64,000 nucleotides of DNA, from positions 10,328-74,327 of IMG/VR virus record IMGVR_UViG_3300019757_000093; one strand, written 5' to 3'. The translations under genes and the position numbers were made by a program. Of this stretch, positions 13,999 through 61,966 are shown in pieces; position 1 is the first letter of the stretch, and the number at the start of each line of letters is the position of its first letter. The DNA is from a virus. The notes under the pieces were generated by a model. That model searched no databases and was not told where the DNA came from. It worked only from the letters and a program-made list of their open reading frames with translations.

Positions 13999-14460
13999 AT
14001 GGAGTTAAAGGTAAATAAACAATTACTTCTAGAAGGAGTTTTTACTTCTGGGAAAAAAGTTAATCATCCAGGTAAATTTATACCTGGAACGGCAGATAGA
14101 AAGAAACATCTATCTGCTGTTTCAGCACATGGTAAAGATAAAGCAGAAAGAAACGTTACTGCTAAACAAGCTAAAGATATTAGAAGTTCTCCTAGAGTAC
14201 AATCTGCTAAAAAAAGAATAAATGAAGCAAAAGCTCATGGTATGAAGCCAAGAAGTGCTGATAAAGATACAAGTACTTTAGCCCATAATTTAGTAGCCGG
14301 CGGAATTTTAAAACAAGCGCATAAGCGATCTAAATCATTAGAGGGGATTGTTAAAGATGCTACTGATACTTCTAATAGAATTAAAACTAAAAAACATACT
14401 ATTGGCGATGATAATTTAATGGATAAGAAATTATCCGGCAAAGATATTAAAAGCGTTTAA
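13999..14460 (+). CDS. Basic putative internal head protein with MELKVNKQLLLE leader
   Basis: Lys/His-rich; leader shared with 14482, 14724 and 61367. Confidence 0.6.
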   Translation: MELKVNKQLLLEGVFTSGKKVNHPGKFIPGTADRKKHLSAVSAHGKDKAERNVTAKQAKDIRSSPRVQSAKKRINEAKAHGMKPRSADKDTSTLAHNLVAGGILKQAHKRSKSLEGIVKDATDTSNRIKTKKHTIGDDNLMDKKLSGKDIKSV

Positions 14461-14481
14461 AATAAAGAAGGAAAAATTAAG

Positions 14482-14724
14482 ATGGAACAAACATTTAAGA
14501 TAAATAAACAACTTTTGATTTTGGAAGCTACTTCTATGTTAGAAGAGGCTAAACATAATCAAAAAACTGGTGCTGGAAGTACTCTTACGGATGTAACTCA
14601 TTCCGGTAAAAGTGATAGTGCATTATTTAATTCCGCTTCTGAAAAAACAGTTGATGATAAAAAAGATATCACTGATGAAAATAAAGAAGAGAAAAAAGAA
14701 ATTAATACTAGGATGGTAGATTAA
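14482..14724 (+). CDS. Putative internal head protein (leader FKINKQLLILE)
   Basis: Shared leader; lies between protease and capsid genes. Confidence 0.55.
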   Translation: MEQTFKINKQLLILEATSMLEEAKHNQKTGAGSTLTDVTHSGKSDSALFNSASEKTVDDKKDITDENKEEKKEINTRMVD

Positions 14725-15032
14725 TGCAGGTAGAATTAGAAGTAAATAAATCGACTATCCTAGAAGAATTAAACGCTAAACAATTCTTTGGAGTACCAGC
14801 CGCTACTGTAGGTGGAGGAGTAATTGGATCTACTATTGGATCTGGAGTTGGTCTTTTATCTGGAGTAGCAGGTGGAGAACCAGAAACCGTTGATGATATT
14901 GTTGGGAGTGGTGTAGCGAATGCTTTAATTGGCTCGGCTGTTGGTGGAACAGTAGGAGCTCTTGGTTCTGGCTATATGGCAAATAATGTTTTAAGAGATA
15001 GACCAGAAGATCAAATGGTTCCACAAAAATAA
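14724..15032 (+). CDS. Glycine-zipper protein with related leader (ELEVNKSTILEE)
   Basis: Two GxxxG-rich hydrophobic segments. Confidence 0.55.
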   Translation: MQVELEVNKSTILEELNAKQFFGVPAATVGGGVIGSTIGSGVGLLSGVAGGEPETVDDIVGSGVANALIGSAVGGTVGALGSGYMANNVLRDRPEDQMVPQK

Positions 15033-15052
15033 AACACTTTATTTTTAGTACT

Positions 15053-15304
15053 AACTAATGTCTAGAATAAACATAGCAAAACATAATATTTAAATAGCCG
15101 ATGCTATTTAAAATAGTTTGGGTTTATAGTCATCCCGCCTTAGGATGGTATAATAATATCATTACTACAATAAAACTTATTATGTACTCGTTAAGTTAAT
15201 TACTTAAACGTTTTTGCAAAAACGCTTTTTAATTAGAAGCACATTAGAGCATAGCTCGTAAAAAATATAACGGGTATTTACCCAATTTAAAAAAGGAAGT
15301 CCAA
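15053..15304 (+). promoter_or_regulatory. Putative late promoter (AACTAA-TGTC-TA) and a structured leader of about 240 nt for the capsid gene
   Basis: Motif at 15053..15064; several inverted repeats in 15089..15283. Confidence 0.55.
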
Positions 15305-16855
15305 ATGGCACAAATTTTAGATAATCTTATTATGGAAAACTACGATGTTTTCGTAAAAGAACATAGCACGCTTTTCGAAGAAGCTAGAACACCTTCAGAA
15401 ATTCTTTTCGATGATTCATACTTTGAAATGTACGTTTCTCAGTTAACAAAAGGTCTTGAAGAAGCAACAATTAAGCAAATTACTCCAGTTCTTGATAGAG
15501 AAAGAAAAATGTTCCTTGAAGAGCATAATGCCTTATTAAGTTCTCCAGAAGCAATTGCTTATGCTGTAACTACATTCCCAATGTTAATTAACATCTATGC
15601 TGAGCCTCAATTAAGTAAAATTGTAACAACTTATCCTTCAGATGTTCCTACTTTATCTATCTCTAGAATCAAATGGGTTTCTAAAGTTATTGATGAAAAA
15701 GGTGGAGTTACTGAATATATGTTCCCAACAGCTACTGAAATGGTTAGACCTAACTTTAAACAATTTAAAGTTTCTCAATCAGCTAATCTTTATACAGAAT
15801 TAGATATCGCTAAAGGTGATTTCAGACTTTCTAAAAGAAATTTCAAAGTAACTGGTATTGATGTTGCAGTTGACGATGGTTCTGCTGTTACTACAGTTAA
15901 TGTTCCAGTAATTGCTATTGCAGGTGCTAGAGGTAACTTTACAGTTGAAGATTTCCTTGTTCCAGGTGTAACAGGTGGTGTTTATAAATTACAAGGTTCT
16001 GTAGACTTTGAATCAGGTTCTGTAACTTGGTCTGTAATTACTATTGAAGTTGGTGATAAAGCTGTTTCAGGTGAAAGCATTGAAGTTAAATTTAGATTAT
16101 TTGGTAACGGTAACGGTAGAGGTGTTGTTAAATCAGCTCCAAAACAAGACATCATTGATGTTAATGCTGATATTGAAGATTCTTTTGAAGTTGAAAATAT
16201 CGAAGAAGTGATCCAAGATTGGTCTGCGATCTATAAACTTGATATTATTTCTGAACTTAAAAACTTCGTTAAACAACAAATCAAGTTAAATAGAGATTAC
16301 GAAATTGCTGATCTTTTAGAATCAAATATTCCTTATGCTATGAGTGTTGGACAATACAAAGAGATTGACTTTACACAGTATACTGAATTAGGCGGATTCA
16401 AACCTTCAAATGTTCAAGATGTATTTAAAAATATTGTTCCTACTATTATGTCTCTAGTTGAGAAAATGAGAAAAACAAACAATATGGAAGTACAATACTT
16501 AGCTTGTGGTGTTGATGTTGCTGTTATCCTTAAATCATTACAAGAATTCGCAATTAAATTTGAGAAAATGAATGGTGAATCAGGTGTTAATGGTACAGTT
16601 GGTGGATTCAATAAACTTGAAATCATCGAGTCTTATGCAATTAATGATGACTTAATGCACTTAGTATTAGTTGCTCCAGCAATGAACCAAAGTTCAATCG
16701 TTGAAGTATTATTTAAGCCTTTATATATCATTACAGAGACTACTAACTCAATCAGAAGAACATTCATTAAATCTAGAACATGGATTGGAATTGTTAGATC
16801 TGAAGGTATTGGTACAATCAGACTTAAAGGTTATGACGCTTGGGTAAATGTTTAA
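15305..16855 (+). CDS. Major capsid protein (divergent gp23/HK97-type)
   Basis: Position after the protease; EEVIQDWSAIYKLDIISEL...QIKLNRDYEI resembles the gp23 'ELAQDL..vhglD...eL...I..EI' block; high-expression codon bias (TTC, AAC, ATC). Confidence 0.85.
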   Translation: MAQILDNLIMENYDVFVKEHSTLFEEARTPSEILFDDSYFEMYVSQLTKGLEEATIKQITPVLDRERKMFLEEHNALLSSPEAIAYAVTTFPMLINIYAEPQLSKIVTTYPSDVPTLSISRIKWVSKVIDEKGGVTEYMFPTATEMVRPNFKQFKVSQSANLYTELDIAKGDFRLSKRNFKVTGIDVAVDDGSAVTTVNVPVIAIAGARGNFTVEDFLVPGVTGGVYKLQGSVDFESGSVTWSVITIEVGDKAVSGESIEVKFRLFGNGNGRGVVKSAPKQDIIDVNADIEDSFEVENIEEVIQDWSAIYKLDIISELKNFVKQQIKLNRDYEIADLLESNIPYAMSVGQYKEIDFTQYTELGGFKPSNVQDVFKNIVPTIMSLVEKMRKTNNMEVQYLACGVDVAVILKSLQEFAIKFEKMNGESGVNGTVGGFNKLEIIESYAINDDLMHLVLVAPAMNQSSIVEVLFKPLYIITETTNSIRRTFIKSRTWIGIVRSEGIGTIRLKGYDAWVNV

Positions 16856-16940
16856 TCCTAACGGATTAAACATCTTTATAATTTAATAATAAAATTCTTT
16901 GATGGAAAATAGTACTAGTAATAAAGTACGGAAAATGGAA

Positions 16941-16980
16941 CTTAGATATGGACGAATCCATATCTAAGATTTCCTGTCGT
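16941..16980 (+). terminator. Hairpin + TTCCTGTC element
   Basis: CTTAGATATGGA-cgaa-TCCATATCTAAG then ATTTCCTGTCGT. Confidence 0.75.
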
Positions 16981-17013
16981 AGCTAAAATAGATATTTTTT
17001 AAAAAGGTATTAT

Positions 17014-18495
17014 ATGGATAAATTACAAAAAATAAATCTAAAACATAATTATAAATTTAAGTATATTTCTGAAATAAAAAGAAACTGTGATATAATTAAA
17101 TTTATATGTCCGGAACATGGCGAACAAGAAATGAAATATATTAATCATTTAAATAGTCCAACTGGTTGTAAAATATGCAATAATATTATTATATCTCAAA
17201 GAAATTCTAAAAAGAGACCAATTGAAAAAAGCAGATCAATTAGATTAAATAATCTAAATAAAAAATTTAATAAAAAATTTAAATATTTAAATTTAGATAA
17301 TATTACTGATTTTAATAAAGAATTATTAGATATAGAATGTCCAGAACATGGAAAATTTAAAATGGGGTATATTAGACATCTTAATCATAAAACGGGTTGT
17401 CCTATATGTTCGTATAAAATAAATTATCCAAATATTAAAAATATAGAATATTTAAACAATAAAAATTATATTACTAATAACTTTATTCATAATAATATAT
17501 TAGATACTATTGCTATTACTAAATTTTTTAATGTTGGTATAATAAAAATACATAAAATATTAAATAATTTAAAAATTTCGTATAAGAAAAAGATTGGTGG
17601 TAATAGTCAATTAGAACAAGAAGTATTAACTTTTATTAAATCCATATACTCTGGAAAAATAATAACGAACTCTCGAAAAATTATTACTCCACTAGAATTA
17701 GATATTTATATACCAGAATATAATTTGGCTATAGAATTTAATGGTCTTTATTATCATTCATACGGATTAAATAATATTACTGATAAACAAGCTGATTTAA
17801 AATATCAGAGTACTAGACATTTAAATAAGACTAATCTATGCGAAGATAAAAATATAAATTTATTACATATTTTTGAGAATGAATGGTTAGATAATAATAA
17901 GCGAGAAATATGGAAAAGTATTATTAAAAATAAATTAAAAATAAATAATAATAAAATATATGCCAGAAAAACCATTATAAAAGAAGTATCTATTCTAGAT
18001 GCTAGAATATTTCTAGAAGAAAATCATATACAAGGTGCTGGAGCTATTGGTCCTATTAGATATGGTCTATATTTAAATGATACCTTAGTATCAATAATGA
18101 CATTTGGTAAACCTAGATTCAATAAAACTATACCCTTCGAATTAATACGTTTATGTAGTAAAATTAATTATACCGTAGTAGGTGGGGCATCTAGGTTATT
18201 TAAATATTTTAGAAAATACCATCCAGGTGAAATAATATCGTATGCAAATAGAAGATTTGCATTTAAGCATAAGAATATATATAAAACGCTAGGTTTAGAA
18301 GAAGAAGAAGTTACTGTACCAAATATGTTTTATTTTAAAGGAACTTCCGAATTATATAGTAGACATAAATTCCAAAAACATAAATTGATAAATTTTGAGC
18401 ACTATTCAAAAGATAAAAGCGCATTAGAAATTATGATAAATAATGGATATAGAAGAATTTATGATAGTGGTAATTTAAAATTTAAAACTAATTAA
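17014..18495 (+). CDS. Hef-like free-standing homing endonuclease
   Basis: Two CPEHG...GCxxC zinc-ribbon repeats; ELDIYIPEYNLAIEFNGLYYH nuclease core; C-terminal RRIYDSG; very AT-rich. Confidence 0.85.
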   Translation: MDKLQKINLKHNYKFKYISEIKRNCDIIKFICPEHGEQEMKYINHLNSPTGCKICNNIIISQRNSKKRPIEKSRSIRLNNLNKKFNKKFKYLNLDNITDFNKELLDIECPEHGKFKMGYIRHLNHKTGCPICSYKINYPNIKNIEYLNNKNYITNNFIHNNILDTIAITKFFNVGIIKIHKILNNLKISYKKKIGGNSQLEQEVLTFIKSIYSGKIITNSRKIITPLELDIYIPEYNLAIEFNGLYYHSYGLNNITDKQADLKYQSTRHLNKTNLCEDKNINLLHIFENEWLDNNKREIWKSIIKNKLKINNNKIYARKTIIKEVSILDARIFLEENHIQGAGAIGPIRYGLYLNDTLVSIMTFGKPRFNKTIPFELIRLCSKINYTVVGGASRLFKYFRKYHPGEIISYANRRFAFKHKNIYKTLGLEEEEVTVPNMFYFKGTSELYSRHKFQKHKLINFEHYSKDKSALEIMINNGYRRIYDSGNLKFKTN

Positions 18496-18550
18496 AATAT
18501 TCCCTTCGGGGAATATTCCTGTCGTTGAATTTACTTAGAACTAAAACTTA
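18496..18550 (+). promoter_or_regulatory. Hairpin(UUCG)+TTCCTGTC element followed by the AACTAA-AACT-TA promoter motif
   Basis: AATATTCCC-ttcg-GGGAATATT, TTCCTGTC at 18516, AACT at 18539. Confidence 0.75.
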
Positions 18551-18570
18551 TAAAATAAGAAGGATTTGCT

Positions 18571-19035
18571 ATGGCGTTAATGGATTTTAGTCTAGGGGAT
18601 ATTGGTGGACTATTTACTGGTTTAAGAGAAGCAATTACTGGAGAAAAAATAGAAGACCCAGTAGAATTAGCTAAGATAGATTTACAATTACAAGAATTAG
18701 AACGCCTTGCAAATGCTGGTCAAATGGAAGTTAATAAAGTAGAAGCGGCCCATAAATCAATATTTGTAGCTGGTTGGCGCCCCTGGCTCGGCTGGGTATG
18801 TGGAATGTCAATAGCATATAGTTTTATTGGACAACCATTATTAGAATGGGGATTGGTTTTCTTCGATCATCAGATAGCTGTAAAAACAGTAATAGATGGT
18901 TCTATAGTTTGGTCAGAGGGAATAAAAGTACCACAAATAGATTCGGAGAATCTGATGGAATTAACCTTAGGAATGTTAGGTTTAGCTGGACTAAGAACAT
19001 ATGAAAAAACAAAAGGAGTCTCTCGTGAAAGATAA
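18571..19035 (+). CDS. Holin (3TM gene-transfer-release type)
   Basis: FVAGWRPWLGWVCG and GMLGLAGLRTYEK signatures. Confidence 0.85.
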   Translation: MALMDFSLGDIGGLFTGLREAITGEKIEDPVELAKIDLQLQELERLANAGQMEVNKVEAAHKSIFVAGWRPWLGWVCGMSIAYSFIGQPLLEWGLVFFDHQIAVKTVIDGSIVWSEGIKVPQIDSENLMELTLGMLGLAGLRTYEKTKGVSRER

Positions 19036-19549: not shown

Positions 19550-19572
19550 AATAAAATAAAAGAAGGAATATT

Positions 19573-20178
19573 ATGATAAGTTATGATACATTACCAAAAG
19601 AAATAAATGAGGCTTTTACTGAAGGACTTAGACTTAGAAAAGCTAATAAAAAGAAACCAGAAATTAAAGAAGCTTTAGACGAACTAAAGAAAATTACATC
19701 TTGGTATGATTGGGACTATACTAAAAATACAAATTTAGCTAATAAGAAAATGGTTTATATTTTTCTTAATCAATTAACTAAAGATAATTTTAAATGCGAT
19801 AATCCAAAATGTACGGAATTAACTCGGATTAATTCTGATATTACTAAAAATAGTTATTGTAGTAAAAAATGTAAAGATCAAGATTATAAAGAAATGAAAG
19901 AAGCATCTGAAAAAGTTTTTAAGAAAATTAGAGAAGCTAAAGAAAAAGAAATAGTAACTCCAGAAAAGCCAGCAGTAATTGCGGAATTGACTCAAAAACA
20001 ATTAAATGTATTTAAGAGAAATTGTAAACTTAAATTTAATGCAAAATATGGTTATGCTAAAACTTATTTTAAAAGTACTCAAGATTTAGTAATTGTAAAT
20101 TGTCCAGAACATGGAGATTTTGAAGTACAAGTAATGGATCATTTACGAGGAATTGGATGTCCAGAATGTTTGAATTAA
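19573..20178 (+). CDS. Zinc-binding protein with one C-terminal CPEHG ribbon and no nuclease core
   Basis: CDNPKC, YCSKKC, CPEHG..GCPEC. Confidence 0.65.
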   Translation: MISYDTLPKEINEAFTEGLRLRKANKKKPEIKEALDELKKITSWYDWDYTKNTNLANKKMVYIFLNQLTKDNFKCDNPKCTELTRINSDITKNSYCSKKCKDQDYKEMKEASEKVFKKIREAKEKEIVTPEKPAVIAELTQKQLNVFKRNCKLKFNAKYGYAKTYFKSTQDLVIVNCPEHGDFEVQVMDHLRGIGCPECLN

Positions 20179-20191
20179 TAAAGGGAAAAAA

Positions 20192-20620
20192 ATGAAGAGA
20201 TCTATTTTAATAATAGAAAATCATTTATATCAAGCCGGGAATGGTGTTAATAATGGATTGACTCATGCCTCTCGTAAAAGTCATAATGCTTTGGTAAATC
20301 ATTTACCAATAGAAAAATTAGTTGATTTAAATGATGAAAAAGAAATTATAGATGGTATGGGTGGAAAAAATAGATACATAGCCAATACTAGCAATACTTA
20401 TAAATTATTAGGCTCTGTTGGTGGTGCTAGTGCTGGGGTTAAAGCTGGTTTAGAATCTGGGGAATTATACGCTGATCCGGACGAACCTACTCTAGCCCTG
20501 GATTTAGCTGCTGGAGCTGCTGGATTCTTAGGTGGTGGTTATTTAGGTTCTAAATTTGGAAAAGATTATGGAAACGCGTTAAGTACCAAAACATATAATA
20601 CTATATATGATAAAAAATAA
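20192..20620 (+). CDS. Glycine-zipper putative virion protein
   Basis: GSVGGASAG and AAGAAGFLGGGYLG; N-terminal ILIIE. Confidence 0.55.
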   Translation: MKRSILIIENHLYQAGNGVNNGLTHASRKSHNALVNHLPIEKLVDLNDEKEIIDGMGGKNRYIANTSNTYKLLGSVGGASAGVKAGLESGELYADPDEPTLALDLAAGAAGFLGGGYLGSKFGKDYGNALSTKTYNTIYDKK

Positions 20621-20634
20621 AGGAAGGAAAATAT

Positions 20635-21291
20635 ATGCAAAATATACAAAATATAGCTAATCCAGAATTAGATTATGGATTACATTCTAAACAACAAGCC
20701 GATGTATCTGCTAATAATAAAGATAGATTAGGTTCCGCTTTATTAGGAACTGGAATATTAGGTGGAACTGGTTATTTAGGTTATCAGGGTTATCAACACT
20801 TCGATGTAGAAGATCCAGCAAGACTAGCTGGTAAAGGAGCAAAAGGAGTAGTTAATGGTGTAACTACTGGTAGCGAAAATTTAAAAGATACTGGAATAAA
20901 AGTCGGTAAAGGTATTTATAATGTGGGTACTGAATTAATAGATGATGCTAAAAGAGCTGCTGGTGCCGTAGTAAAAGGTTATCAAGAATCGAAAGAAATT
21001 GATTTAAAGCAAGTTCTTCTTAATGAGAATTATGTTTCTCCTGCGACTGGTAAAATTAATTTTAATAAAGTTGCTTCTGATGTAAAGAATAATGCGGGGT
21101 TGATAGCTGGAGCGGGGGTTCTTGGTTTAGGAACATTAGCTGGAATGGAAGATCAACCAGATGCAAACACAGGTGTTAAAGCTATGGGAGCTGGATTAAT
21201 GGGAGCTGCTGGTGCCGGAATTGGTCATGTTATTCATTCGCAAGTTAAAAAGAATAACCAATTGCCTTCAGAACCAAGATATTCTTATTAG
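20635..21291 (+). CDS. Glycine-zipper putative virion protein (two modules)
   Basis: Three Gly-rich hydrophobic segments; internal EIDLKQVLLNE. Confidence 0.55.
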   Translation: MQNIQNIANPELDYGLHSKQQADVSANNKDRLGSALLGTGILGGTGYLGYQGYQHFDVEDPARLAGKGAKGVVNGVTTGSENLKDTGIKVGKGIYNVGTELIDDAKRAAGAVVKGYQESKEIDLKQVLLNENYVSPATGKINFNKVASDVKNNAGLIAGAGVLGLGTLAGMEDQPDANTGVKAMGAGLMGAAGAGIGHVIHSQVKKNNQLPSEPRYSY

Positions 21292-21299
21292 GTATTATT

Positions 21300-21641
21300 A
21301 TGATTTTAAATAATTCTCAATTAAGTTTTATTCAAGAAGATATGATTGCTACTAATGGTGGTGATCATAAAGGCGATAATGAGGGTATGTTAGCATCCAA
21401 TGGTATGCTAACTTTAACTACTCATCAAGAGTATCTAAAAAAACATAAGTTAGATGATTCTATGGCAGAAGATACTTCTGAAAGCACTGATTTATCTAAA
21501 GAAGGAGAAGATCAAATTAATGGTGTTCCCGAAGATACGAAAAAGCTTAAAGAAGATGGTACTATGTTAGCAGCCGCGTTGGTACCAGCAAGTATTATTG
21601 GCTGGCAATCAGTAAAAGATAAGGTAGGATTTCATAGATAA
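21300..21641 (+). CDS. Acidic hypothetical protein, possibly internal head
   Basis: 113-aa ORF; N-terminal NSQLSFIQE. Confidence 0.5.
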   Translation: MILNNSQLSFIQEDMIATNGGDHKGDNEGMLASNGMLTLTTHQEYLKKHKLDDSMAEDTSESTDLSKEGEDQINGVPEDTKKLKEDGTMLAAALVPASIIGWQSVKDKVGFHR

Positions 21642-21697: not shown

Positions 21698-22588
21698 ATG
21701 GAATTACTCGGAAACGAATCGCGTCCAGCGTTCATGGACGCATTGGATAAAGTTTCTCAATTAGCCAAGATTAATGCTCAGGAAACTGACTTAGTTATTC
21801 TTAGGGAAAAAGTTGAAATTACTCCATTAGCTGGAGATGAAGAGCAGGCTTTAAAAACTGGTAATATTACGCTTACTACTTTTATTAAAAACTTTAATAA
21901 ATTATTATTCTCTAAATTAAATCTTTCGGAAGATTCTAAATTAAAAGATTATGAAACATTTTTAAAGAAATTAACTCCACAAGATAAAGCATTAATTATA
22001 TATGCATTCTCTTTAAGTTCATTTAATAAATTAGGAACTCTTGGTCATATTTGTGAACATTGTGATGAAGAATACCCAGTAGATGTTATACCAGAAGAAT
22101 TATGGCATGATGATAGTGCACCAGAGCCTTGGGATAAAAAAGAAGACCCTTTTGAATATGTTGAGACTCAGCATTTCTTAGATGGAGCTTTACAAATTGA
22201 TTTTAAATTACCAACAGAGTTTGATCGAATTAAACTTATGGATATGTTAGAAAATCAAGTAAAGAATAATTTAGATAGTACTGGAAATACCTTTTCTGTA
22301 TTAGATACGATAGCATTCTTTTGTGCTAGTATTAGAATTATAGATGCTGAGAATGGTAAAGTATCTCAAGAGTTAACTGATTTAACTAAAGAGATTTTTC
22401 CTTTCTTACATAATTTACCAGCGAAAGTAAAAGATGGAATTTATGAAACAGTAGATTTAGAAATATTTGATAAGTACATGCCTAAATTGTACCAAGTATC
22501 TAAATGTAATAGATGTCATAAAACAAATAATGTTAAGATAAACATTGAAACCGAATTCTTTCGAAAAAGCGTTCTTCTATTCGGATAG
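21698..22588 (+). CDS. Baseplate hub / tail assembly chaperone (T4 gp26/gp51-like)
   Basis: ITPL..DEE..L, CEHC, FKLPT, CNRC and ETEFF layout. Confidence 0.65.
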   Translation: MELLGNESRPAFMDALDKVSQLAKINAQETDLVILREKVEITPLAGDEEQALKTGNITLTTFIKNFNKLLFSKLNLSEDSKLKDYETFLKKLTPQDKALIIYAFSLSSFNKLGTLGHICEHCDEEYPVDVIPEELWHDDSAPEPWDKKEDPFEYVETQHFLDGALQIDFKLPTEFDRIKLMDMLENQVKNNLDSTGNTFSVLDTIAFFCASIRIIDAENGKVSQELTDLTKEIFPFLHNLPAKVKDGIYETVDLEIFDKYMPKLYQVSKCNRCHKTNNVKINIETEFFRKSVLLFG

Positions 22589-22873: not shown

Positions 22874-23926
22874 ATGGCTATAAAAGAAGTTAAAAAGGTT
22901 TTAAATATAGAGAAGGATCTTAGTAGTACGGATTTTATCTCCCAAAAAATGGGGGAAGTTACTAAAAGAATTCAAAATAAGTACTCTGATAAAATTGTAA
23001 AGGTAACCACTTTATGTGTACAGGATAAACAATTAGTTATTTCTTGTACAGAGGAAAGTAAGATATTTATGGGAGCACCAAGTATTGGATTAAACACACC
23101 TCTTGAACTATTAAGCCAACAAGCTTTAAATAGTTTATCTTTAGTAACATTAGATAATGAAATGATTAATACTTACGAATTAATATTAACATTCGATAGT
23201 ACCATTCCAGATTATACCTCGGCTATTAATGCGGCCCAAGCTAAAGCAGATGAAATTTTTGAAGAGAATGATACAAAAATTCCTTTAGTTACAGTAATTG
23301 ATTATAGATGGGGTAATCCAAATAAAACTATTTCCGCTAGTATTTTTGGGGAAGAAGATCCAGAAGGAAAGGTAGTACCATATTTAAATGGAACTGCTAC
23401 TATTAATATTACTGGTGGTAATATTAATGGAGATTTAGGTTTCTTTAATCCTATTAATTTTTATAAAACAGATGCTTTAGTAGCAGATAATGGATTAGAA
23501 TATAAATTATTAATGTTAGATTTTGAAACTCCGGCATATTTAAGTTATATTGAATTAGCTTATGTAGTTAAAGAATTAAATGGAAGAATCCCAAATATAG
23601 CGGAAATTAATAGTACCTCAATTAATGGTGGTCCAGCAGTTAATACTGGGATAGAAATAATTAATGCTTATATATGGGCAAAATATTATCCAAATCATAG
23701 TTTAAAAGTCGCTCCTACTAATAGAGATCAATATTGGACTATTCCTATCAATCCTCTAGAAACTAAAAATAGTTATATAGTATGGGGAGAAGAAACTAAT
23801 CTTTCTTATATGAATACATTTGATACCGGATTAATTGATGTAATTAATGCAGCTGAATTTAAAAATAATGTAAACAGAAATGCTTATGTTAATAAGGTAA
23901 TAGAATATATGAAATCAGTAGGATAA
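22874..23926 (+). CDS. Modular virion protein, paralog 1 (constant N-domain + unknown C-domain)
   Basis: VKVTTLC, LDNEM, AQAKAD and DTKIPLVT.IDYR shared with the other paralogs. Confidence 0.75.
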   Translation: MAIKEVKKVLNIEKDLSSTDFISQKMGEVTKRIQNKYSDKIVKVTTLCVQDKQLVISCTEESKIFMGAPSIGLNTPLELLSQQALNSLSLVTLDNEMINTYELILTFDSTIPDYTSAINAAQAKADEIFEENDTKIPLVTVIDYRWGNPNKTISASIFGEEDPEGKVVPYLNGTATINITGGNINGDLGFFNPINFYKTDALVADNGLEYKLLMLDFETPAYLSYIELAYVVKELNGRIPNIAEINSTSINGGPAVNTGIEIINAYIWAKYYPNHSLKVAPTNRDQYWTIPINPLETKNSYIVWGEETNLSYMNTFDTGLIDVINAAEFKNNVNRNAYVNKVIEYMKSVG

Positions 23927-23930
23927 TCTT

Positions 23931-24567
23931 ATGTCAGTAAAAGCAATCAAAAAAATATTAAATATAGAATATGATTTAACTTCGGATGAATTCATTGATC
24001 AAAAAATGGTTTTCATGACGGACGAAATTCAAAGAAAGTATAATGGGTCGTTAGTTAAAGTGACTACCTATTGTACTAGAGATAAAGAATTAGTTGTTTC
24101 AACAACTCCTGGTAATGCTCAATTTATTGGAGCTCCTACTCATATTCTTGAAAGAAAGCATATTTCTCAACAAGCATTAAGTAATTTAGATAATGAAATG
24201 CTTATGACTTTTGAAATTACTATTATGAATAATAGTACCATTGATAGCTACGAGTCGGCACTTAATGTGGCTCAAGCTAGTTCCAGATAGTGTAGATAAA
24301 AATGATATCTTTGGATACTCAGTATCGATTAGCGCTTCTCAGGCGATTGTTGGATCTTATGGTGATGACGATAAAGGAAGTAATTCTGGTTCAGTTTATT
24401 CATTTGATTTAAGTGGTGGTAATGCTACTAAATTAGTAGCCTTTGATGGAGCAAAAAATGACAAGTTTGGATTCAGTGTGGGCGCCAGTGGTACTAAGTT
24501 GGTTATTGGTGCTTATGGCGATGACGATAACGGAAGCAATTCGGGGTCTGCATACGTTATCGGTTAA
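23931..24567 (+). pseudogene. Paralog 2: constant N-domain joined out of frame to FG-GAP repeats (internal deletion)
   Basis: Homology stops at AQA (24279); the +1 frame gives FGYSVSIS...VGSYGDDDKGSNSGSVY twice. Confidence 0.65.
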
Positions 24568-32864: not shown

Positions 32865-32925
32865 TCTTAGCCTTCTGGCTAAGATTTCCTGTCGTAGTTA
32901 AAACTACAGATGGAACAAAGATATA
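32865..32925 (+). promoter_or_regulatory. Hairpin+TTCCTGTC element and AACAAA-GATA-TA promoter motif
   Basis: TCTTAGCC-ttct-GGCTAAGA, TTCCTGTC at 32886, AACA at 32914. Confidence 0.75.
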
Positions 32926-32954
32926 TCAAAATAATTAAAAACGAAGGAGCTATT

Positions 32955-33977
32955 ATGGCTATAAAAGACGTTAAGAAGATATTACACATTGAGTATGATT
33001 TAAATTCGGAAGAATTTAAATCTCAGAAATTAAACCAGGTGACTAAAAAATATCAAAGAATGCATCCAAGTAAATTAGTAAAGGTTACTACTTATTGTGT
33101 TCAGAATAAACAATTATTAACTAGTTGTACTCAAGAGAATAAATCTTTAATTGGTGCTGGAAGTAATATATTAGAAGATATTTCTTTAAGTAATTTTTCA
33201 TTAGTAACGTTAGATAACGAAATGCTAAATACTTTTGAATTAACAATTACGGCTAGTAGTACGATACCCTCTTATGAAGAGGCTGTAAATATTGCCCAAG
33301 CTAAGGCGGATGCTTTATTTCGAAAAGATGATACAAAAATTCCTTTAGTAACAATTATTGATTATCGATTTGGACAACCAGAAAATACAGTATCTAGTAG
33401 TATTTTTGGAACAGTGGATGAAAGTGGAAATGTCGTTACGGAAATTAATGGTTCTGCGGATATTACTATTACTGGTGGAAACTTAGCTGCTGGTATTCTA
33501 GAGCTAGCTAAACATAATCTTAACCAAGGTACTCCACCAGTAGAAGAGTTACCATTTTATTTATATCCAACTAACAATTTAGAGATGACTCATAATCATG
33601 GAGAAAATTTTACATACGAAAGTACTATTAATATGGATACTATGGATAAACAAATGGCTTTATTTTCAAATACTTATATGAACGTAAGTGTACTATGGGG
33701 TACCCAAATTCGATTCTATTACGAAGATAATACTGGTCATAATATAATAGGTTTATTTAATTTTAGTACTGGTACTGATTATGATATTAAAGTTGTTTAT
33801 AACGTAGATAATAATTTAGCTCAATTATATATTGATGGTAATTTAATTGCGGAGAAAACTACTTTTGATGGTATGAAAGACAAATTCCGTAATACTTTTA
33901 CAATTGGACGACAAAATTCTACTAATCATATTCCATTCAAAGGTGAAATTAAAGATAATAAATTTACAGCCTTATAG
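32955..33977 (+). CDS. Modular virion protein, paralog 3 (constant N-domain + ConA/LamG-like C-domain)
   Basis: Likely start is ATG 32955 after AAGGAG; QLYIDGNL, FTIGRQ and PFKGEIKD are LamG-like. Confidence 0.75.
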   Translation: MAIKDVKKILHIEYDLNSEEFKSQKLNQVTKKYQRMHPSKLVKVTTYCVQNKQLLTSCTQENKSLIGAGSNILEDISLSNFSLVTLDNEMLNTFELTITASSTIPSYEEAVNIAQAKADALFRKDDTKIPLVTIIDYRFGQPENTVSSSIFGTVDESGNVVTEINGSADITITGGNLAAGILELAKHNLNQGTPPVEELPFYLYPTNNLEMTHNHGENFTYESTINMDTMDKQMALFSNTYMNVSVLWGTQIRFYYEDNTGHNIIGLFNFSTGTDYDIKVVYNVDNNLAQLYIDGNLIAEKTTFDGMKDKFRNTFTIGRQNSTNHIPFKGEIKDNKFTAL

Positions 33978-53209: not shown

Positions 53210-54112
53210 ATGAAAAAAACTTTAATAGAACATATAGAAGATTTTAATAAAATACATAATAATAAATATAATTACTCGAAGGTAAATATATTTACTTGGA
53301 AAGGGTATTTAAAAAAGATACCAATAATTTGTCCAGAACATGGTTTATTTTATCAAACTCCTTCCGATCATAAACGTCCAAATGGATGTAAAAATTGTGG
53401 AATAAAAAAAGGAAGTAAAAAGAGAATTATATCTTTTGATAATTTACAAAAAGAATTTAATAAAATACATAAGAATAAATATGATTATTCAAAAGTAAAA
53501 TATAAAAATATTAGTACTAAAATAGATATTATTTGTCCAGAACATGGAGTTTTTTCTCAATTACCTATGTCTCATAAATTAGGATATGGTTGTAATAAAT
53601 GCAGAAAATATACAATATCGAAAGAAAAAATAATTAAACATATAGAAGAATTTAATAAAATACATAAGAATAAATATGATTATTCAAAAGTAAAATATAA
53701 AAATAGTAATACTAAAATAGATATTATTTGTCCAGAACATGGAGTTTTTCGAAAAACTCCAAATGCTCATAAATCAGGGCAGGGTTGTCCAAATTGTAAA
53801 GAATCAAAAGGAGAAACTATTATTAGACATTACTTAGAAGAAAATAATATTTCTTTTAAACAAGAATATAAATTATCAAATAATCAACGTTTTGATTTTT
53901 ATTTAGAAGAATATAACACTATTATCGAATTCGATGGTATTCAACATTTCCAACCAGTAGATTTTTTTGGAGGAAAAGAAGGTTTTATACAAACGAAAGA
54001 AAGAGACATATATAAGAATAATTATTGTAAAGATAATAATATTAAACTTATTAGAATATCCTATAAAGATATAAAAAAAATAAATAATATATTAGAAAAA
54101 GAATTATACTAA
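53210..54112 (+). CDS. Homing endonuclease: three CPEHG repeats + PD-(D/E)xK domain; paralog of 50271
   Basis: ESKGE, RFDFYLEEYN, IEFDGIQH. Confidence 0.85.
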   Translation: MKKTLIEHIEDFNKIHNNKYNYSKVNIFTWKGYLKKIPIICPEHGLFYQTPSDHKRPNGCKNCGIKKGSKKRIISFDNLQKEFNKIHKNKYDYSKVKYKNISTKIDIICPEHGVFSQLPMSHKLGYGCNKCRKYTISKEKIIKHIEEFNKIHKNKYDYSKVKYKNSNTKIDIICPEHGVFRKTPNAHKSGQGCPNCKESKGETIIRHYLEENNISFKQEYKLSNNQRFDFYLEEYNTIIEFDGIQHFQPVDFFGGKEGFIQTKERDIYKNNYCKDNNIKLIRISYKDIKKINNILEKELY

Positions 54113-56252: not shown

Positions 56253-56274
56253 ATAAAATATAGAAGGAAATAAA

Positions 56275-56550
56275 ATGCAAAAAGAAATTCAATTAACTGA
56301 GGAACTAGAAGCTAAGGTAAAACAATTAGAAGAAGCATTGGTTGGTGGTATGCAAATGCGTACTCATGAAAGTAAAAAGAATGCTGCTATTGGTGCAATA
56401 GCTGTGTCTATGGCTAAGAAAAATAAAGATCCTCTTTATGAATTATTAAAAAGACATAGAGATGCTTGGAAAAGAGCAAAGAATGATATTGTAATGAGAT
56501 ATAGAAGTCAAGCGGAAATGAAATTCCAACAGAAACAATCGGGAATGTAA
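56275..56550 (+). CDS. Small putative head protein
   Basis: QLTEE/QLEEA N-terminus followed by a basic helix. Confidence 0.6.
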   Translation: MQKEIQLTEELEAKVKQLEEALVGGMQMRTHESKKNAAIGAIAVSMAKKNKDPLYELLKRHRDAWKRAKNDIVMRYRSQAEMKFQQKQSGM

Positions 56551-56589
56551 TATGAAGAATTCATATAATTCTACGGAAAAGGAGCATTA

Positions 56590-59568
56590 ATGAAACAAGT
56601 AAGATTTGGATCATTTCCATTAGCGGAAATTTTACCTAAAGAAAAAGATTGTCTTGATAAGTACTTAATTAAACACTTCGCTGATAATATTTCATTTAAA
56701 GATACTATTACTAATCTAAGTGTTACTAAGAATACTTTTTATGTTGGACCAACAGAGATAGTTAAAGATTTATTAAAATCAAGAACTGGAACCGGTTCAG
56801 GTGAATCATTTAAATTTGGAGATATAAATAGCAATACTAGTCATCCGGCTAATATGAAATATTTAGAAGTCCAAAAAAGAGCATTTAATGTTATTAGTAA
56901 TTTTTATTTTAAATTATCAGATGCTCCTTTTTATAAAGGTATGACTTATTATCCAATTTATATAGAGAAAGTAGAGAAATCTTTTACTCCTATTTCTGGA
57001 AAAGATATTGATCAAAAATTTAATTATTCTTTTATTTTATTAACTAATGATCTTATTCATAATAAAGAAAGAAAAGTAGATGAAGCTGGAGTTATAAATT
57101 TTTTATATATTTATTTACATTTATTTCATAGTCCATTTTTACTGAATGAAGATTTAAAGTATAGCGTAGATAGCACCACTGGTTTAAGTAGTATTTCTAA
57201 AGAACATGTAGTTCAGGTAATGAAATTTTATAAGTTAATTCAAACTTATGATTTAAATCCAGTTAAAGTATTTATGAGTATATATGAATTAATTAAAGTT
57301 GCTAAAGATTTTAGCATGGATTTCGGGAATTCTAATACTTCTGATAGAAAATTTAATACTCAACTTGGAAATACTTTAAAAAATAAAATGGATAAGTTTA
57401 ATAATCCTTTATTTAAAAATATGTTAGATAAAGTTATTCAAGAAGTAACTGATTTATTCCATAGAAATTTAATTGGTGGTTCTAGATTATCAAAAGAAGA
57501 ATCTTTAAAACATAGTAATATTATGTTACATATTATTAACCTAGTTTTAAAAGATAAAGAGATTCATGATTTTGTAGATAATTTACAAGAGGGAAGATTC
57601 TCTAGAGATTCTAGAATGCAGGCAGTAGCAGACTTTCATCATTATAGTAATATTATTAATAATTTTAACGAGTTAGTAGCTTATAATGAGTTAGGAATTC
57701 AAGATATTATTAAAGATATGGATGTTAATTTTGATAAAGACTTGGTTATTGACAACGAAGATGATTCTGATTTAGCTGATCAGGTTTCTAGACTAACTGG
57801 AATTATTGATCGAAATAATTTTGATACAGCATTTAGTAAATTTGTAATGGATTTTAAAACATATTCTGAGATTATTATTCAAAAAGAATTATCTCCGGTG
57901 GTTTCAAAATTAAGACATAATCATATGAATAGTGTGTCTGGTTCTGATCAAATAAGATCTCTAGGAAATAGTATTAAAAACCATGAAAATCAATTAAGAG
58001 ATTTTGATATTACTATTGGTAGCTTAACTCAAGAAAAAAGTTTTATTTTATCTGTTAGCACTAATGGAACACTTGGAACTAGAGAAGCGGATAGATATCA
58101 GGAAATTGAGCAGGAATTAATTAATATTAAAACTCAAAAGAATGAAACAATAAGATTAATGCAAGAAGATAATGCTCAATTAATAATAGTTAATCAACAA
58201 AGAGATTTAGCTTTAGAAAAGAATGAATTTAAACTACCAAGATTAGATAATACTTCTGATTTATTTAATAAAATAGATGAAAGTATTGGATTTATTTATG
58301 GAGATTTAGAAAGTTTATTTATGAATCCTATGGTATTACAAGAGATGTTATCTGGAAAAAATTACAGTTATGATAGTATTCCAAGTAATGCTCAAGATTT
58401 AAATAATATATTTTTAAGTACTCCTAGAACTAATGACGAAATGATTAATAGTTTATATAGACAGTTATATGAGGATATCCAACATACTAGCGAAGTACTT
58501 ATGAATGAGATTCATAATCAGGTAGAATTATTAGGTGGAAATATAACTGATATTGGAAGTGAATTATCTAAAGAACATATCCAAGCGAATATAATTAAAT
58601 CATTAGGTTTAAGATTTTTTGCAGTAATGAAAAAATATCTAAGAAACATTAGTACCAAAACTAATAGAATCCTTCAGTACAAATCTTCTTTACAAGGTAT
58701 TCATCCTATGTTAGGAAAAATGTCTAAAGATCCAAGTAATTTTAAATCATTTATTCTTAGTACTAATATACTTTCGGCTTTATATGATTTAATTTTTATT
58801 ACTCAAGAGAAAATGTTCTTAAGTGGTTTATTAAAAAGACCACCTAGAAAATTAAATAATGCTGATGCTAAATCAGAATTTATAGTAAATAATATTCTTG
58901 GATTACAAAATAATCCTACTTGGGTTGTTGGAGAAAATAAAATCCGATTATTACTTCCAGATTATTTAGCCTTAACTGGTAGTCAAATAGTATCTGAAAT
59001 ACCAAAAGCTAAATTAAAGCAAATATGTAATATGGATTTAAAAAATTGGTGGAAGCAAAATGCTATGGGAACTCTTAATAAATTAGAAGGAAAGAATCCG
59101 GAATTAATAAAAGTTAATGATGAATTAAAAGCTTTAAGAGCGGAACTTTCTAAAACCGATAGAGAAGATAAATCAACTTATCAAAGAATTCAATTACAAA
59201 TTCAAGATAAAGATAAAGAAAAGCTAAAGATAGCAAGCCATAATCCTCAGGATAATACTTTAGGAAATGTTGGTATGACATTTACTTCTGGTGGGTTGAG
59301 TAATTACGAAACTCTTAGATCTAAGGCAGGATTCGATAAACAGAGTACTCCAGAAGAACAAGAAAGATATGATCAATTAACTCCAGAAGAACAAGCGGAA
59401 ACGAAAGATCCAAGAAGGAATGATATTAATAGTGGTTTTGATGATGGTATTAATAAAGATTTAATCCAACAAACGCAAACTCAGCCACTAGGTGGAAGAT
59501 TTGACGATGTTCACGAAGATTTAATGAGAAAAAGATTAATGGATAGAGCAGTTTTTAATAGGAGCTAA
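56590..59568 (+). CDS. Large hypothetical protein (992 aa) with coiled-coil segments
   Basis: Long ORF with AAGGAG SD. Confidence 0.75.
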   Translation: MKQVRFGSFPLAEILPKEKDCLDKYLIKHFADNISFKDTITNLSVTKNTFYVGPTEIVKDLLKSRTGTGSGESFKFGDINSNTSHPANMKYLEVQKRAFNVISNFYFKLSDAPFYKGMTYYPIYIEKVEKSFTPISGKDIDQKFNYSFILLTNDLIHNKERKVDEAGVINFLYIYLHLFHSPFLLNEDLKYSVDSTTGLSSISKEHVVQVMKFYKLIQTYDLNPVKVFMSIYELIKVAKDFSMDFGNSNTSDRKFNTQLGNTLKNKMDKFNNPLFKNMLDKVIQEVTDLFHRNLIGGSRLSKEESLKHSNIMLHIINLVLKDKEIHDFVDNLQEGRFSRDSRMQAVADFHHYSNIINNFNELVAYNELGIQDIIKDMDVNFDKDLVIDNEDDSDLADQVSRLTGIIDRNNFDTAFSKFVMDFKTYSEIIIQKELSPVVSKLRHNHMNSVSGSDQIRSLGNSIKNHENQLRDFDITIGSLTQEKSFILSVSTNGTLGTREADRYQEIEQELINIKTQKNETIRLMQEDNAQLIIVNQQRDLALEKNEFKLPRLDNTSDLFNKIDESIGFIYGDLESLFMNPMVLQEMLSGKNYSYDSIPSNAQDLNNIFLSTPRTNDEMINSLYRQLYEDIQHTSEVLMNEIHNQVELLGGNITDIGSELSKEHIQANIIKSLGLRFFAVMKKYLRNISTKTNRILQYKSSLQGIHPMLGKMSKDPSNFKSFILSTNILSALYDLIFITQEKMFLSGLLKRPPRKLNNADAKSEFIVNNILGLQNNPTWVVGENKIRLLLPDYLALTGSQIVSEIPKAKLKQICNMDLKNWWKQNAMGTLNKLEGKNPELIKVNDELKALRAELSKTDREDKSTYQRIQLQIQDKDKEKLKIASHNPQDNTLGNVGMTFTSGGLSNYETLRSKAGFDKQSTPEEQERYDQLTPEEQAETKDPRRNDINSGFDDGINKDLIQQTQTQPLGGRFDDVHEDLMRKRLMDRAVFNRS

Positions 59569-59661
59569 TCGGTAAGAGCTTAATATAAAATTAAGCTCTT
59601 AATATAGTACATAACTAAATATAGAAAATAAAAACCTTAATTAAGGGAAGGAATTATAAAA

Positions 59662-61317
59662 ATGAAAATAAAAAAAATTGGAGCTAGCTCAAGATTAGAT
59701 TTACAATTTAAAACTAAAATCTTTGAACAGGCTGAAATGTCTTTAAAGAAAATAAATGCTAGACAAAATAAAGCTAGTAATGATATTATGATTGAAGAGA
59801 GCACTAAGGCTGATGTTTTATTAAAATCTGCTAGACCTAATGCCAACTTTAATTTCGAGGTAAGCCAAAAAGTACAGAAACTACAAAAGATTGAAGAAAG
59901 TACTAGAAGTTTAGGAACTGAAAATTTCAGTGCTACTAAATTAGAAAGAAAACTTAGTCATGATTTAAGTTATCTAAATTATTTAGGGGAGAGCACATTT
60001 AAAGTTGATGAGAGTAAAGAATTATATATGTCTTTAATTCAAGAAGCTGCTATACTTAGTTCTGATCTTTATAGAGAAGCAAATGTTACACCAAGATTAA
60101 TTTCTTTGGCAATTAATGAAGATCTATCGGAAGCTGAAAATAATACTATTTATGAAAATACTCTTACTCAAAGTCTTGAGAAGAATTTTAGAATCCCTTT
60201 ATTACAAGGTAAGTTACTTCAAGAAAATGAAGCAGCTGTAAAGAAAATTATTACAGAAAGCGTTGAAAAAGGTCTAAATGATCTTGGAGATATTAATCCA
60301 GGTGAGATGGCAACTTATTTACCATTTCAAAATACTGTACGAAGTCATATTCAGGAATCATTTTTACCTCAACCAGCTATGGTTCAAGTAGATAATTTTA
60401 CAGGAGCACAAGATGCTAACTACGATACTTTTGATGGAAACGCTAATGCAATTATGGCGAAGCTCGATAACGTTCTAGATAAAATTACAACTATGTTAAG
60501 TCCATCTTTATTTAAAGATAAAGTTGATATGGGTGAAGATTCATTTGATGGTACTAAATATGCTATGATGAAAGCTGTAACTGATATGCCTTGCGAAGAT
60601 GGAGCAGATGCTGGAGATAGTCCATGTGCTTTAGCAGGAGATAGTGCATCAGGAAGCGTTTCTGGTCCAGATGATTTAGGTTTTGGAGCAGAAGAAGCAC
60701 CAGCAACTGGGGATGATATTATACCATCAGAGGGAGCTGAAGTAATTTCTGGAGAAGATGATGCTACAGCAGCCGCACCAGAAGCCGGTATGACTGGGGA
60801 CGATGTTGATTTAGAAGCTGAAGCAGCCGCTATTGATTCGGCAGTAGATTCTGGAGAGTTAGATGCAGGAGAAATTTCTGAGCCAGGTGCTAGTGTAGAA
60901 GTTCCAGTGGAAACAACTAAAGAAGATACTCCAACTGTAACACCAGAAGATGATGGTCAAAATAATGAAGGTGATTTAGTAGATAATTCTGGAAAAGATG
61001 ATTCTGAAGGTGGAAATAAAGATACAACATCTAATACAGAAACTAAAGATGATTCTGGAGAATCAAAAAGCGACGAGAAATCAGAAAAGAGTGAAAATCC
61101 ATTTGCTAAAAAAGATTCAGAAAACGGAGAATCTAAAGAATTAGATAAAGAAGATGCTAAAACTCAAGATTTAGATAAAGATGGAGTAGCTGATTCAAAA
61201 GAACCTCATGGTATGGATTCTGATTCTGATGGAGATCCAGTAGATAAAGATGATAAAGATAAATCTCATTCACCTGAAGCTAAAGATAAAGATAAAGATA
61301 AAGATAAAAAAGATTAA
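59662..61317 (+). CDS. Putative scaffold/core protein with a long acidic disordered tail
   Basis: Repeated [IL]-x-E sites; D/E-rich C-terminal part ending in DK repeats. Confidence 0.55.
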   Translation: MKIKKIGASSRLDLQFKTKIFEQAEMSLKKINARQNKASNDIMIEESTKADVLLKSARPNANFNFEVSQKVQKLQKIEESTRSLGTENFSATKLERKLSHDLSYLNYLGESTFKVDESKELYMSLIQEAAILSSDLYREANVTPRLISLAINEDLSEAENNTIYENTLTQSLEKNFRIPLLQGKLLQENEAAVKKIITESVEKGLNDLGDINPGEMATYLPFQNTVRSHIQESFLPQPAMVQVDNFTGAQDANYDTFDGNANAIMAKLDNVLDKITTMLSPSLFKDKVDMGEDSFDGTKYAMMKAVTDMPCEDGADAGDSPCALAGDSASGSVSGPDDLGFGAEEAPATGDDIIPSEGAEVISGEDDATAAAPEAGMTGDDVDLEAEAAAIDSAVDSGELDAGEISEPGASVEVPVETTKEDTPTVTPEDDGQNNEGDLVDNSGKDDSEGGNKDTTSNTETKDDSGESKSDEKSEKSENPFAKKDSENGESKELDKEDAKTQDLDKDGVADSKEPHGMDSDSDGDPVDKDDKDKSHSPEAKDKDKDKDKKD

Positions 61318-61337
61318 TGAAATTTCATTAATCTTTT
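61308..61337 (+). terminator. Perfect palindrome at a gene end
   Basis: AAAAGATTAATGAAATTTCATTAATCTTTT. Confidence 0.55.
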
Positions 61338-61366
61338 AATGTTGTAGTCAGGGATAAAGGAATAAA

Positions 61367-61966
61367 ATGGAATTGAAAGTAAATAAACAATTAATAATAG
61401 AATCTCTCAATGCTTCGTTAACTACAACCATATTAAAAACAATTAAAGTTAATAATAAAATGCAAAAGAATTACGAGTATTATTTAACAGAACCAGTTGG
61501 TAAAAAGTTCCATAAGGATTTTAATCCAGAATTAACTCCAAAAGAAATGATGGAAACTGGTATCTTTGGTGGAAAATATTTTAATGATGTAAGTCAAACG
61601 AATGAATATCCAAAAGATTGGTGGTCTAAAGCTATTCTTAGCGGACAACAAAATAAATCTAATTATAAATTAAATTATTTTCAAGTCCCAGCTAGTTTAT
61701 CCTTAAAAGAATGGAAAAGAAAAAAATGGATTCATCCAGATGATCCAAGAGGTTGGGTTGAATGGTATTTTAGATATTATATGGGTAGAAGACATGAAGA
61801 TGACGAGAGACAAATTAAAAGATGGAAGAATGCTAAAAGGCATTTACAAGCAGCCCTAACTTACCAAAAGAAAAATGATGGTAAGCAATCTCTAGCCAGA
61901 TTACAAACTATGCTTCATTGGGCATATGATGTAAGAAAAGAAAAAAAGATTAAGAAGGATAAATAA
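61367..61966 (+). CDS. Conserved uncharacterised domain fused to a MELKVNKQLIIE leader
   Basis: LTPKEM..GIFGGKYF, DPRGWVEWYFRYYMGRR and DERQIKRW recall a widespread Trp/Arg-rich family of unknown function. Confidence 0.7.
   Translation: MELKVNKQLIIESLNASLTTTILKTIKVNNKMQKNYEYYLTEPVGKKFHKDFNPELTPKEMMETGIFGGKYFNDVSQTNEYPKDWWSKAILSGQQNKSNYKLNYFQVPASLSLKEWKRKKWIHPDDPRGWVEWYFRYYMGRRHEDDERQIKRWKNAKRHLQAALTYQKKNDGKQSLARLQTMLHWAYDVRKEKKIKKDK

Follow-up and report, generated by a model that had tools for sequence, protein, structure and literature searches.

The stretch of viral DNA discussed here, called the window in what follows, covers 64 kb of a viral contig that has 74.3 kb and a G+C content of 28% (IMG/VR record IMGVR_UViG_3300019757_000093). 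Together with many orphan genes, it holds genes for a prohead protease (13159-13977) and a major capsid protein (MCP, 15305-16855), a holin-like gene (18571), and a tail sheath gene (30055). Four of its genes, at 13999, 14482, 14724 and 61367, encode proteins that are otherwise unrelated, and all four begin with M-x-L-x-[VI]-N-K-x-h-h-h-E, where h is a hydrophobic residue. By analogy with phage T4, this leader of 12 residues is probably a capsid-targeting and cleavage propeptide, used by a clade of uncultured giant myoviruses of low G+C content; we would put the probability at about 0.7. Such a T4-style address tag is the most likely explanation because the common 12-mer ends in the motif cut by head proteases of the T4 type, and the phage has a protease of this kind.

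Four leaders in the window

A preliminary description of this DNA had picked out strong N-termini at these four places, and the motif scan and the matrix ranking given below bear out every one of them. The leaders, with their scores on a position-specific scoring matrix (PSSM), are as follows.

13999..14034, + strand: Leader 1, MELKVNKQLLLE, 12 codons, PSSM 20.7 bits
14482..14526, + strand: Leader 2, MEQTFKINKQLLILE, 15 codons, PSSM 15.6 bits
14724..14765, + strand: Leader 3, MQVELEVNKSTILE, 14 codons, PSSM 17.6 bits
61367..61402, + strand: Leader 4, MELKVNKQLIIE, 12 codons, PSSM 17.4 bits, 47 kb away from leaders 1-3

When the full 74.3-kb contig is translated in six frames, the strict motif [LFIVM][KEQ][VI]NK.{1,5}[ILVM].E is found at four places, each of them the start of an open reading frame (ORF). 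The matrix used for the window was trained solely on the leaders of related contigs; with it, the four leaders take ranks 1-4 over all positions of the 84 ORFs, at 15.6-20.7 bits, while the best score of a shuffled proteome has a median of 8.9 bits and never exceeds 14.0 bits. Each of the four starts is preceded, 6-9 nt upstream, by a ribosome-binding site of the AGGA type. Among the leaders there are synonymous differences (GAG/GAA, TTA/TTG, AAG/AAA and several codons for Leu, Val and Ile); because these sites differ, the leaders are kept as a peptide and are not copied DNA. A box of the form AACWAA-N4-TA shows no enrichment in the window, with 20 matches for 23.4 expected, and is no marker of the tagged genes.

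The leader across related contigs

Relatives were fetched from IMG/VR with degenerate DNA patterns of the leader, and seven contigs, amounting to 523 kb and 635 ORFs, were read. The IMG/VR contigs of the relatives measure 81, 130 and 167 kb and are rated 29-59% complete; the longest related contig, from a metagenome, has 281 kb, and a protein identical to the 61367 product sits on a contig of 224.7 kb. A tblastn search of 50,697 deposited phage genomes with the MCP of the window gave nothing at E <= 1e-5. From these contig sizes and from an MCP without a deposited match, it follows that the lineage is an uncultured clade of giant myoviruses with low G+C content.

Each of the seven contigs was scanned with a matrix built from the other six. 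This leave-one-genome-out procedure returned 31 hits that reached 14 bits or more. Every one of these stands at an ORF start, and the hits of 9-13 bits are without exception internal. The tagged genes number 4, 4, 9, 4, 5, 4 and 1 per contig, the nine being on the 167-kb contig (59% complete), and they often form runs, with five consecutive tagged genes in contig G007 and four in G008. In each of the 31 leaders a Met stands 2-4 residues ahead of the [VI]-N-K core. P1, counted as the earliest Glu from the sixth residue beyond this core onwards, is present in every leader. In 30 of the 31, Leu or Ile stands at P3, which gives the ending (L/I)-x-E, and P1' is taken by E, D, S, A, G or V. The leader is 11-15 residues long, and exactly 12 in 25 of the 31, so that the consensus of about 12 residues reads M-x-[LF]-x-[IV]-N-K-x-[LV]-[IL]-[LV]-E.

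Is it the peptide that is conserved, or the nucleic acid beneath it? The leader could be, in the first place, an element of RNA or DNA with the peptide secondary: a translation-initiation or downstream-box signal, an operator for a translational repressor, or a microhomology for the shuffling of cassettes. The core is indeed near-invariant as AUA-AAU-AAA, and the codon ahead of Asn-Lys is ATA in 26 of the 27 cases in which it encodes Ile; the corresponding share is 38% over the whole genome and 55% where untagged genes begin (their first 12 codons). This preference for ATA may reflect a constraint at the RNA level or shared descent, and since the leaders do share descent, their codon counts are not independent. 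The prevalence of AAT and AAA, for its part, equals the codon bias of the genome (90% and 83%). What such an element does not explain is the invariant Glu with Leu or Ile at P3 and the likeness to T4 propeptides, nor why three hydrophobic positions and their spacing to the Glu survive many synonymous and conservative codon changes across the leaders. With hydrophobic codons that vary freely and leaders that share descent, a role of the RNA would be at most an added layer, and we consider it very improbable as the whole explanation.

As a side observation, the codon ahead of Asn-Lys is of the form xTA in 30 of the 31 leaders; in the window the codons concerned lie at 14011-14019, 14497-14505, 14742-14750 and 61379-61387. 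Another observation comes from two contigs of low G+C content (L064:8157-9008 and L066:4603-5454), each with a 283-residue ORF in which MNKSLIEE is directly followed by MKFEINKDVILE, at residues ~95-116, so that two units similar to the leader stand in tandem within a longer frame.

The 61367 protein and the portability of the tag

The protein behind leader 4 is the one that best illustrates what the leader is attached to.

61403..61966, + strand: Cargo 4, a widespread domain of ~167 residues, DUF5872-like by structure, with leaderless homologues elsewhere

This family has at least 7974 members at E <= 0.001 (8000 candidates scored), found in phages, bacteria and archaea. The cargo itself has no Pfam or PHROG family and no relative by sequence in the PDB; fold searches against the PDB also found none (best Foldseek E 3.9, best VIA-align Z 3.0), and the only structural neighbour is DUF5872, with a TM of 0.76, in the ESM Atlas. 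The homologues in Yersinia phage YerA41, Cobetia phage Carin-5, bacteria and archaea begin at the domain, while the 61367 product has ~20 extra residues at its N-terminus. In the AlphaFold 2 model, residues 1-20 stand apart from the core at a low pLDDT (48-53); from residue 21 onwards, the domain reaches ~90. The same domain is thus tagged in the window and untagged in its cellular, YerA41 and Carin-5 homologues, and the suggestion of the preliminary description that the tag is portable holds well.

The closest marine homologues have other short leaders that end in h-x-E, for example MKIPIKKILLE and MKIKLRQILFE, and in one marine homologue a further domain separates the leader from the cargo. 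These alternative leaders indicate that the tag is modular and specific to each lineage.

A search of IMG/VR for one variant, I-P-I-K-x-I-[IL]-L-E, returned 26 matches, with 0 at an ORF start; these are chance matches and serve as a negative control. The lineage that carries this variant leader is not in IMG/VR.

The 61367 family also bears on the idea that the tagged genes are diverged paralogues, whose N-terminus is the last conserved remnant and has no function as a signal. The glycine-rich cargos do show weak similarity to one another, and the genes of the T4 internal proteins are thought to be related. Yet a neutral remnant is not expected to keep a fixed 12-residue format in 25 of 31 cases over seven contigs. 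Moreover, both the 61367 domain and the SNF2 helicase described below have large leaderless families elsewhere, which means that the leader was added to genes that already existed. Common ancestry of the cargos is therefore an explanation to which we give very little credence.

Diverse cargo

When the leader is removed, the 31 cargos fall into 28 BLAST families, and the early impression that the tagged proteins are otherwise unrelated is supported. Between the window and its relatives, the MCP is 82% and the protease 58% identical; for the tagged cargos, by contrast, no orthologue could be detected on these contigs. The types include very basic proteins, glycine-rich hydrophobic proteins, an SNF2 helicase and the DUF5872-like domain, and most are orphans in Pfam; a Pfam search with 20 cargos of the relatives identified the SNF2 helicase only. 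The other three cargos of the window are these.

14035..14460, + strand: Cargo 1, a very basic orphan of 141 residues; isoelectric point (pI) of the whole protein 10.3, no family, composition like that of an internal protein
14527..14724, + strand: Cargo 2, an acidic orphan of 65 residues; no family
14766..15032, + strand: Cargo 3, a hydrophobic orphan of 88 residues, glycine-rich by composition (19% Gly)

By its composition, cargo 2 is possibly a core protein akin to T4 gp67. The helicase, encoded at L108:17697-19892 on the 30.6-kb IMG/VR contig G007, is a protein of 732 residues with the leader MMKNINKKALLEE and with matches to SNF2-rel_dom (2.2e-27) and Helicase_C (1.1e-21); it belongs to the run of five tagged genes on that contig and is a candidate for an ATPase packaged in the virion.

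Such a mixture of proteins raises the question of the destination. Several cargos are glycine-rich and hydrophobic, much like membrane proteins, and giant phages can have other compartments, so that the leader might address the cell membrane, secretion, or a compartment resembling the phage nucleus. However, it is a short peptide with charges (E/K/E), and a long hydrophobic core is lacking: the three consecutive hydrophobic residues between K and E, as read from the sequence, do not make a Sec or Tat signal peptide. Very basic soluble proteins and a helicase are tagged as well, the tagged genes cluster with those for the protease and the capsid, and the leader ends in the motif of the head protease. 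A destination other than the head is accordingly highly unlikely.

The protease, the capsid protein and their neighbourhood

Immediately upstream of the first tagged gene is the enzyme that the capsid-targeting interpretation calls for, and downstream of the third is the capsid gene.

13159..13977, + strand: prohead serine protease, T4 gp21 / phiKZ gp175 family; N-terminus MFQIISE; His77 and Ser141
15305..16855, + strand: major capsid protein; phrog_20655, 1.8e-06; leader-like N-terminus MAQILDNLIME with an h-x-E end

The protease matches phrog_207, head maturation protease, at 2.9e-24, and a small profile built for it finds T4 gp21 (PDB 5JBL) with an E of 1.5e-19. His77 (in GEMDHP) and Ser141 (in GFSLRAFG) are invariant in the alignment and match the catalytic positions that are mutated in 5JBL. 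A complex prediction with residues 8-215 of the protease and residues 1-40 of the 13999 protein returned a score of 0.02 (mark 0.32) and is evidence neither way.

The MCP of the relatives begins with MAKLIDNLILE. The early hydrophobic-x-E that had been remarked upon in the capsid protein (NLIME) and the protease (QIISE) is present in both, and that of the protease aligns with the LIE-9 region of gp21 of the T4 type. Three tagged genes lie between the protease and MCP genes in the window, and tagged genes are likewise found there in contig G005; in T4, this is the place of gp22.

A probable route from leader to packaged protein

To the position and the format of the leader, its portability and the presence of the enzyme, T4 adds by analogy the steps of loading, cleavage and ejection, which we infer would run as follows. 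The tagged proteins would be made late, and the leader would bind a component of the core of the assembling prohead, so that the shell then encloses the protein. After the shell has assembled, the protease would cut behind the conserved Glu (P1, with Leu or Ile at P3) and free the mature protein within the head, which the cut-off 12-mer would leave. The proteins that remain in the head would be ejected together with the DNA. Some tagged proteins, in particular the small acidic one at 14482, may be parts of the core or scaffold rather than cargo to be injected.

This last possibility can be extended to all of them: the leader would then be merely a propeptide, removed by the protease, of core or scaffold proteins that build the internal core and are themselves degraded or expelled when the head matures, and nothing would be delivered to the host. 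The T4 core proteins gp22 (MLKEQLIAE), gp67 (MEGLIE) and gp68 have N-termini of the same type, three tagged genes occupy the position of gp22, and the 14482 protein is small and acidic like gp67. On the other hand, one would hardly expect a scaffold to be an SNF2 helicase or a globular domain that is widespread, and scaffolds are normally conserved core genes, whereas the tagged proteins form 28 unrelated families with fast turnover. The mature parts also have few h-x-E sites in absolute number, unlike scaffolds of the gp22 type. A pure scaffold role is thus unlikely, although less so than the other alternatives discussed here; it overlaps with the capsid-targeting explanation, because targeting and cleavage are needed by both.

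Several results weigh against a T4-type tag for cargo. PHROG and Pfam family searches with the proteins of the window found no gp22 homologue, which also speaks for the scaffold explanation. In Pfam, the protease scores equally well for S80 (PF20034, 31.7 bits, cutoff 23.4), the phiKZ type that cuts S/A/G-x-E, as for S77 (PF03420, 31.5 bits, cutoff 27); the cleavage specificity is therefore deduced from the substrates. The mature parts of the tagged proteins are not depleted in h-x-E (9 observed, 9.9 expected from shuffling), and there is thus no sign in the sequence of selection to survive the protease. A metagenome scan with the DNA pattern of the leader gave 75 stretches, including more of the phage clade (the 281-kb contig) and many short chance ORFs; ~17 of the matches are coincidental, being N-termini of bacterial DnaN, the beta clamp of DNA polymerase III, which read MKFKINKDVLLEN and come from bacteria of low G+C content (e.g., L118, L125, L132, L154). 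Given these DnaN and chance matches, the pattern by itself is not specific and is no indicator of function. Finally, the YerA41 homologue of the 61367 protein is annotated as structural although it has no tag. This annotation gives weak support, because the list of 63 particle-associated proteins obtained by mass spectrometry of YerA41 virions includes many enzymes, which are possible contaminants (PMC7354516).

Comparison with known systems

The capsid-targeting sequence (CTS) on T4's internal proteins was reportedly the subject of work by Mullaney and Black in 1996. It is an N-terminal propeptide of 10-19 residues that binds the core, is sufficient to package foreign proteins and is removed by gp21 (PMC9026906, PMC5694885, PMC7411985), which cuts after the Glu in (L/I)-x-E (PMC9026906, PMC5694885); it is carried by IPI, IPII and IPIII, which are internal proteins, and by Alt (PMC9026906, PMC3012670). 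The leader resembles the CTS in being a short N-terminal propeptide on unrelated, fast-evolving proteins, in its (L/I)-x-E end, in the accompanying protease of the gp21 family, and in the basic cargos that are similar to internal proteins. The turnover of the cargo is also reminiscent of the variability of the internal proteins in T-even phages (PMC3012670, PMC9026906).

There are differences too. The [IV]-N-K core replaces the tag of T4 IPII and IPIII, and the consensus is far more uniform across the clade. Nine tagged genes are present in a 167-kb fragment, compared with about four in T4. The SNF2 helicase, the DUF5872-like domain and the glycine-rich proteins are new as cargos, and the phage itself belongs to a distant lineage that is uncultured.

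Closest in sequence to the leader are the propeptides of T4 gp24 (MAKINELLRE) and gp21 (MNEPQLLIE) and that of gp21 in marine T4-like phages (MKFNLKMNKQLLVE); the leader and these propeptides have in common I-N-[EK]...L-L-x-E and N-K-Q-L-L-[IV]-E. The LIE-9 site of T4 gp21 has been discussed as a possible targeting propeptide (PMC9026906). The protease (MFQIISE) and the MCP (MAQILDNLIME) of the window have shortened versions of the leader at the same place. In T4-like phages the motif is found on the structural and enzymatic head proteins themselves, whereas here the full motif is on accessory proteins; in the parts of three marine T4-like contigs that were examined, it is on the protease only, and no other gene is tagged. 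The preliminary description had called the tag distinct, which is too strong a word in view of the likeness to the gp24 and gp21 propeptides of T4 and to the protease N-termini of the marine T4-like phages.

Giant phages such as phiKZ, 201phi2-1 and SPN3US offer a second comparison, as they have a homologous protease (Pfam S80). In phages of this type, head and ejection proteins are processed after a Glu by gp175 or gp245, and gp53 and gp54 of SPN3US have an identical N-terminus of 15 residues that was likened by the authors to a CTS (PMC5694885, PMC7411985). The propeptides of the phiKZ type are mostly longer than 100 residues and end in S/A/G-x-E; the leader of the present clade, with 12 residues and Leu or Ile at P3, does not belong to that type.

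Encapsulins, too, use a short portable peptide to send diverse cargo into a shell of the HK97 fold. Their cargo-loading peptides are usually C-terminal, remain uncleaved and bind the shell protein directly, with no protease involved.

Weaker leader-like forms

Three weaker forms had been proposed in the preliminary description, and only one of them is backed by further evidence.

20995..21027, + strand: EIDLKQVLLNE, internal leader-like segment, residues 121-131 of the 20635-21291 protein
20192..20620, + strand: glycine-rich orphan beginning MKRSILIIE, a weak candidate only, in the same variable island as the tagged gene G001:35904
21300..21641, + strand: orphan beginning MILNNSQLSFIQE, a weak candidate with MILN in common with leaders of the relatives

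The KQVLLNE inside 20635 reaches only 3.0 bits on the PSSM. The C-terminal half of this protein is homologous to the 109-residue product of G001:35904-36233 (BLASTP 8e-16; 5e-12), whose canonical N-terminal leader aligns exactly at KQVLLNE, and this is the sole h-x-E in the 218 residues of the 20635 protein. From this alignment and the single h-x-E, 20635 looks like two modules fused at a site derived from a leader, and the segment is a probable internal cleavage site that joins them. The homology to the tagged protein of the relative is what sustains this form; the other two are without statistical support, since both 20192 (ILIIE) and 21300 (QLSFIQE) fall outside the 25 best PSSM positions, the lowest of which scores 1.2 bits, and among the related contigs they have no orthologues for comparison. 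The start of 21300 might be likened to the MILNINK leaders of the relatives.

All three genes lie in a variable island of glycine-rich proteins (20192-21641, compared with G001:35904-36233) upstream of a conserved gene for 296 residues at 21698, which is 56% identical to G001:36265. In this island, a single gene of the relative, with 109 codons, bears a canonical leader; three genes of the window have leader-like sites that are degenerate or internal.

Other features of the window

Immediately upstream of the tagged gene at 61367 is a gene (59662-61317) for a protein of 551 residues with a pI of 4.3, which has an acidic, low-complexity C-terminal half, 15 h-x-E sites and no known family; it is a possible candidate for a core or scaffold protein. 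The holin-like gene at 18571-19035 is within the region of the head genes and matches phrog_3427 (1.7e-25) and PF11351, GTA_holin_3TM (2.1e-12).

Two gene families were also observed. Paralogues with repeated C-P-E-H-G...C-P-x-C units (17014-18495, 19573-20178 and 53210-54112 in the window; G001:7465, 11159, 22833 and 23731) interrupt the head genes and, in relatives, also lie between the protease and capsid genes; they look like mobile insertions of the homing-endonuclease type. The genes at 22874-23926, 23931-24290, 32910-33977 and 63629-64000 have a common N-terminal region (…KKVLNIE.DL.S.DFI.QK…) and C-terminal parts that differ.

Significance

The finding reveals no new mechanism and carries that of T4 over to a distant lineage. 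If the tag acts like the CTS of T4, sequence alone suffices to list which proteins an uncultured clade of giant phages packages and possibly injects. Their T4 counterparts include antirestriction and host-takeover factors (IPI*, Alt), and the tagged orphans, the DUF5872-like domain with its thousands of homologues, and the SNF2 helicase become candidates for functions in the first minute of infection. In addition, a 12-mer of such uniformity could become a packaging tag for engineering once there is a cultured relative.

A wider interpretation, which we offer tentatively and hold to be less probable than the tag function itself, is that the 12-mer is an address code, valid across the clade, for packing a large and fast-changing arsenal. 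Leaders would co-evolve with the core and the protease of their lineage, and cargo would move between lineages by the swapping of leaders; the DUF5872-like cargo bears at least three other leaders specific to their lineages. The AUA-AAU-AAA core might even be a recombination or translation handle for such swapping. If this interpretation is true, one could read from sequence which proteins uncultured phages inject.

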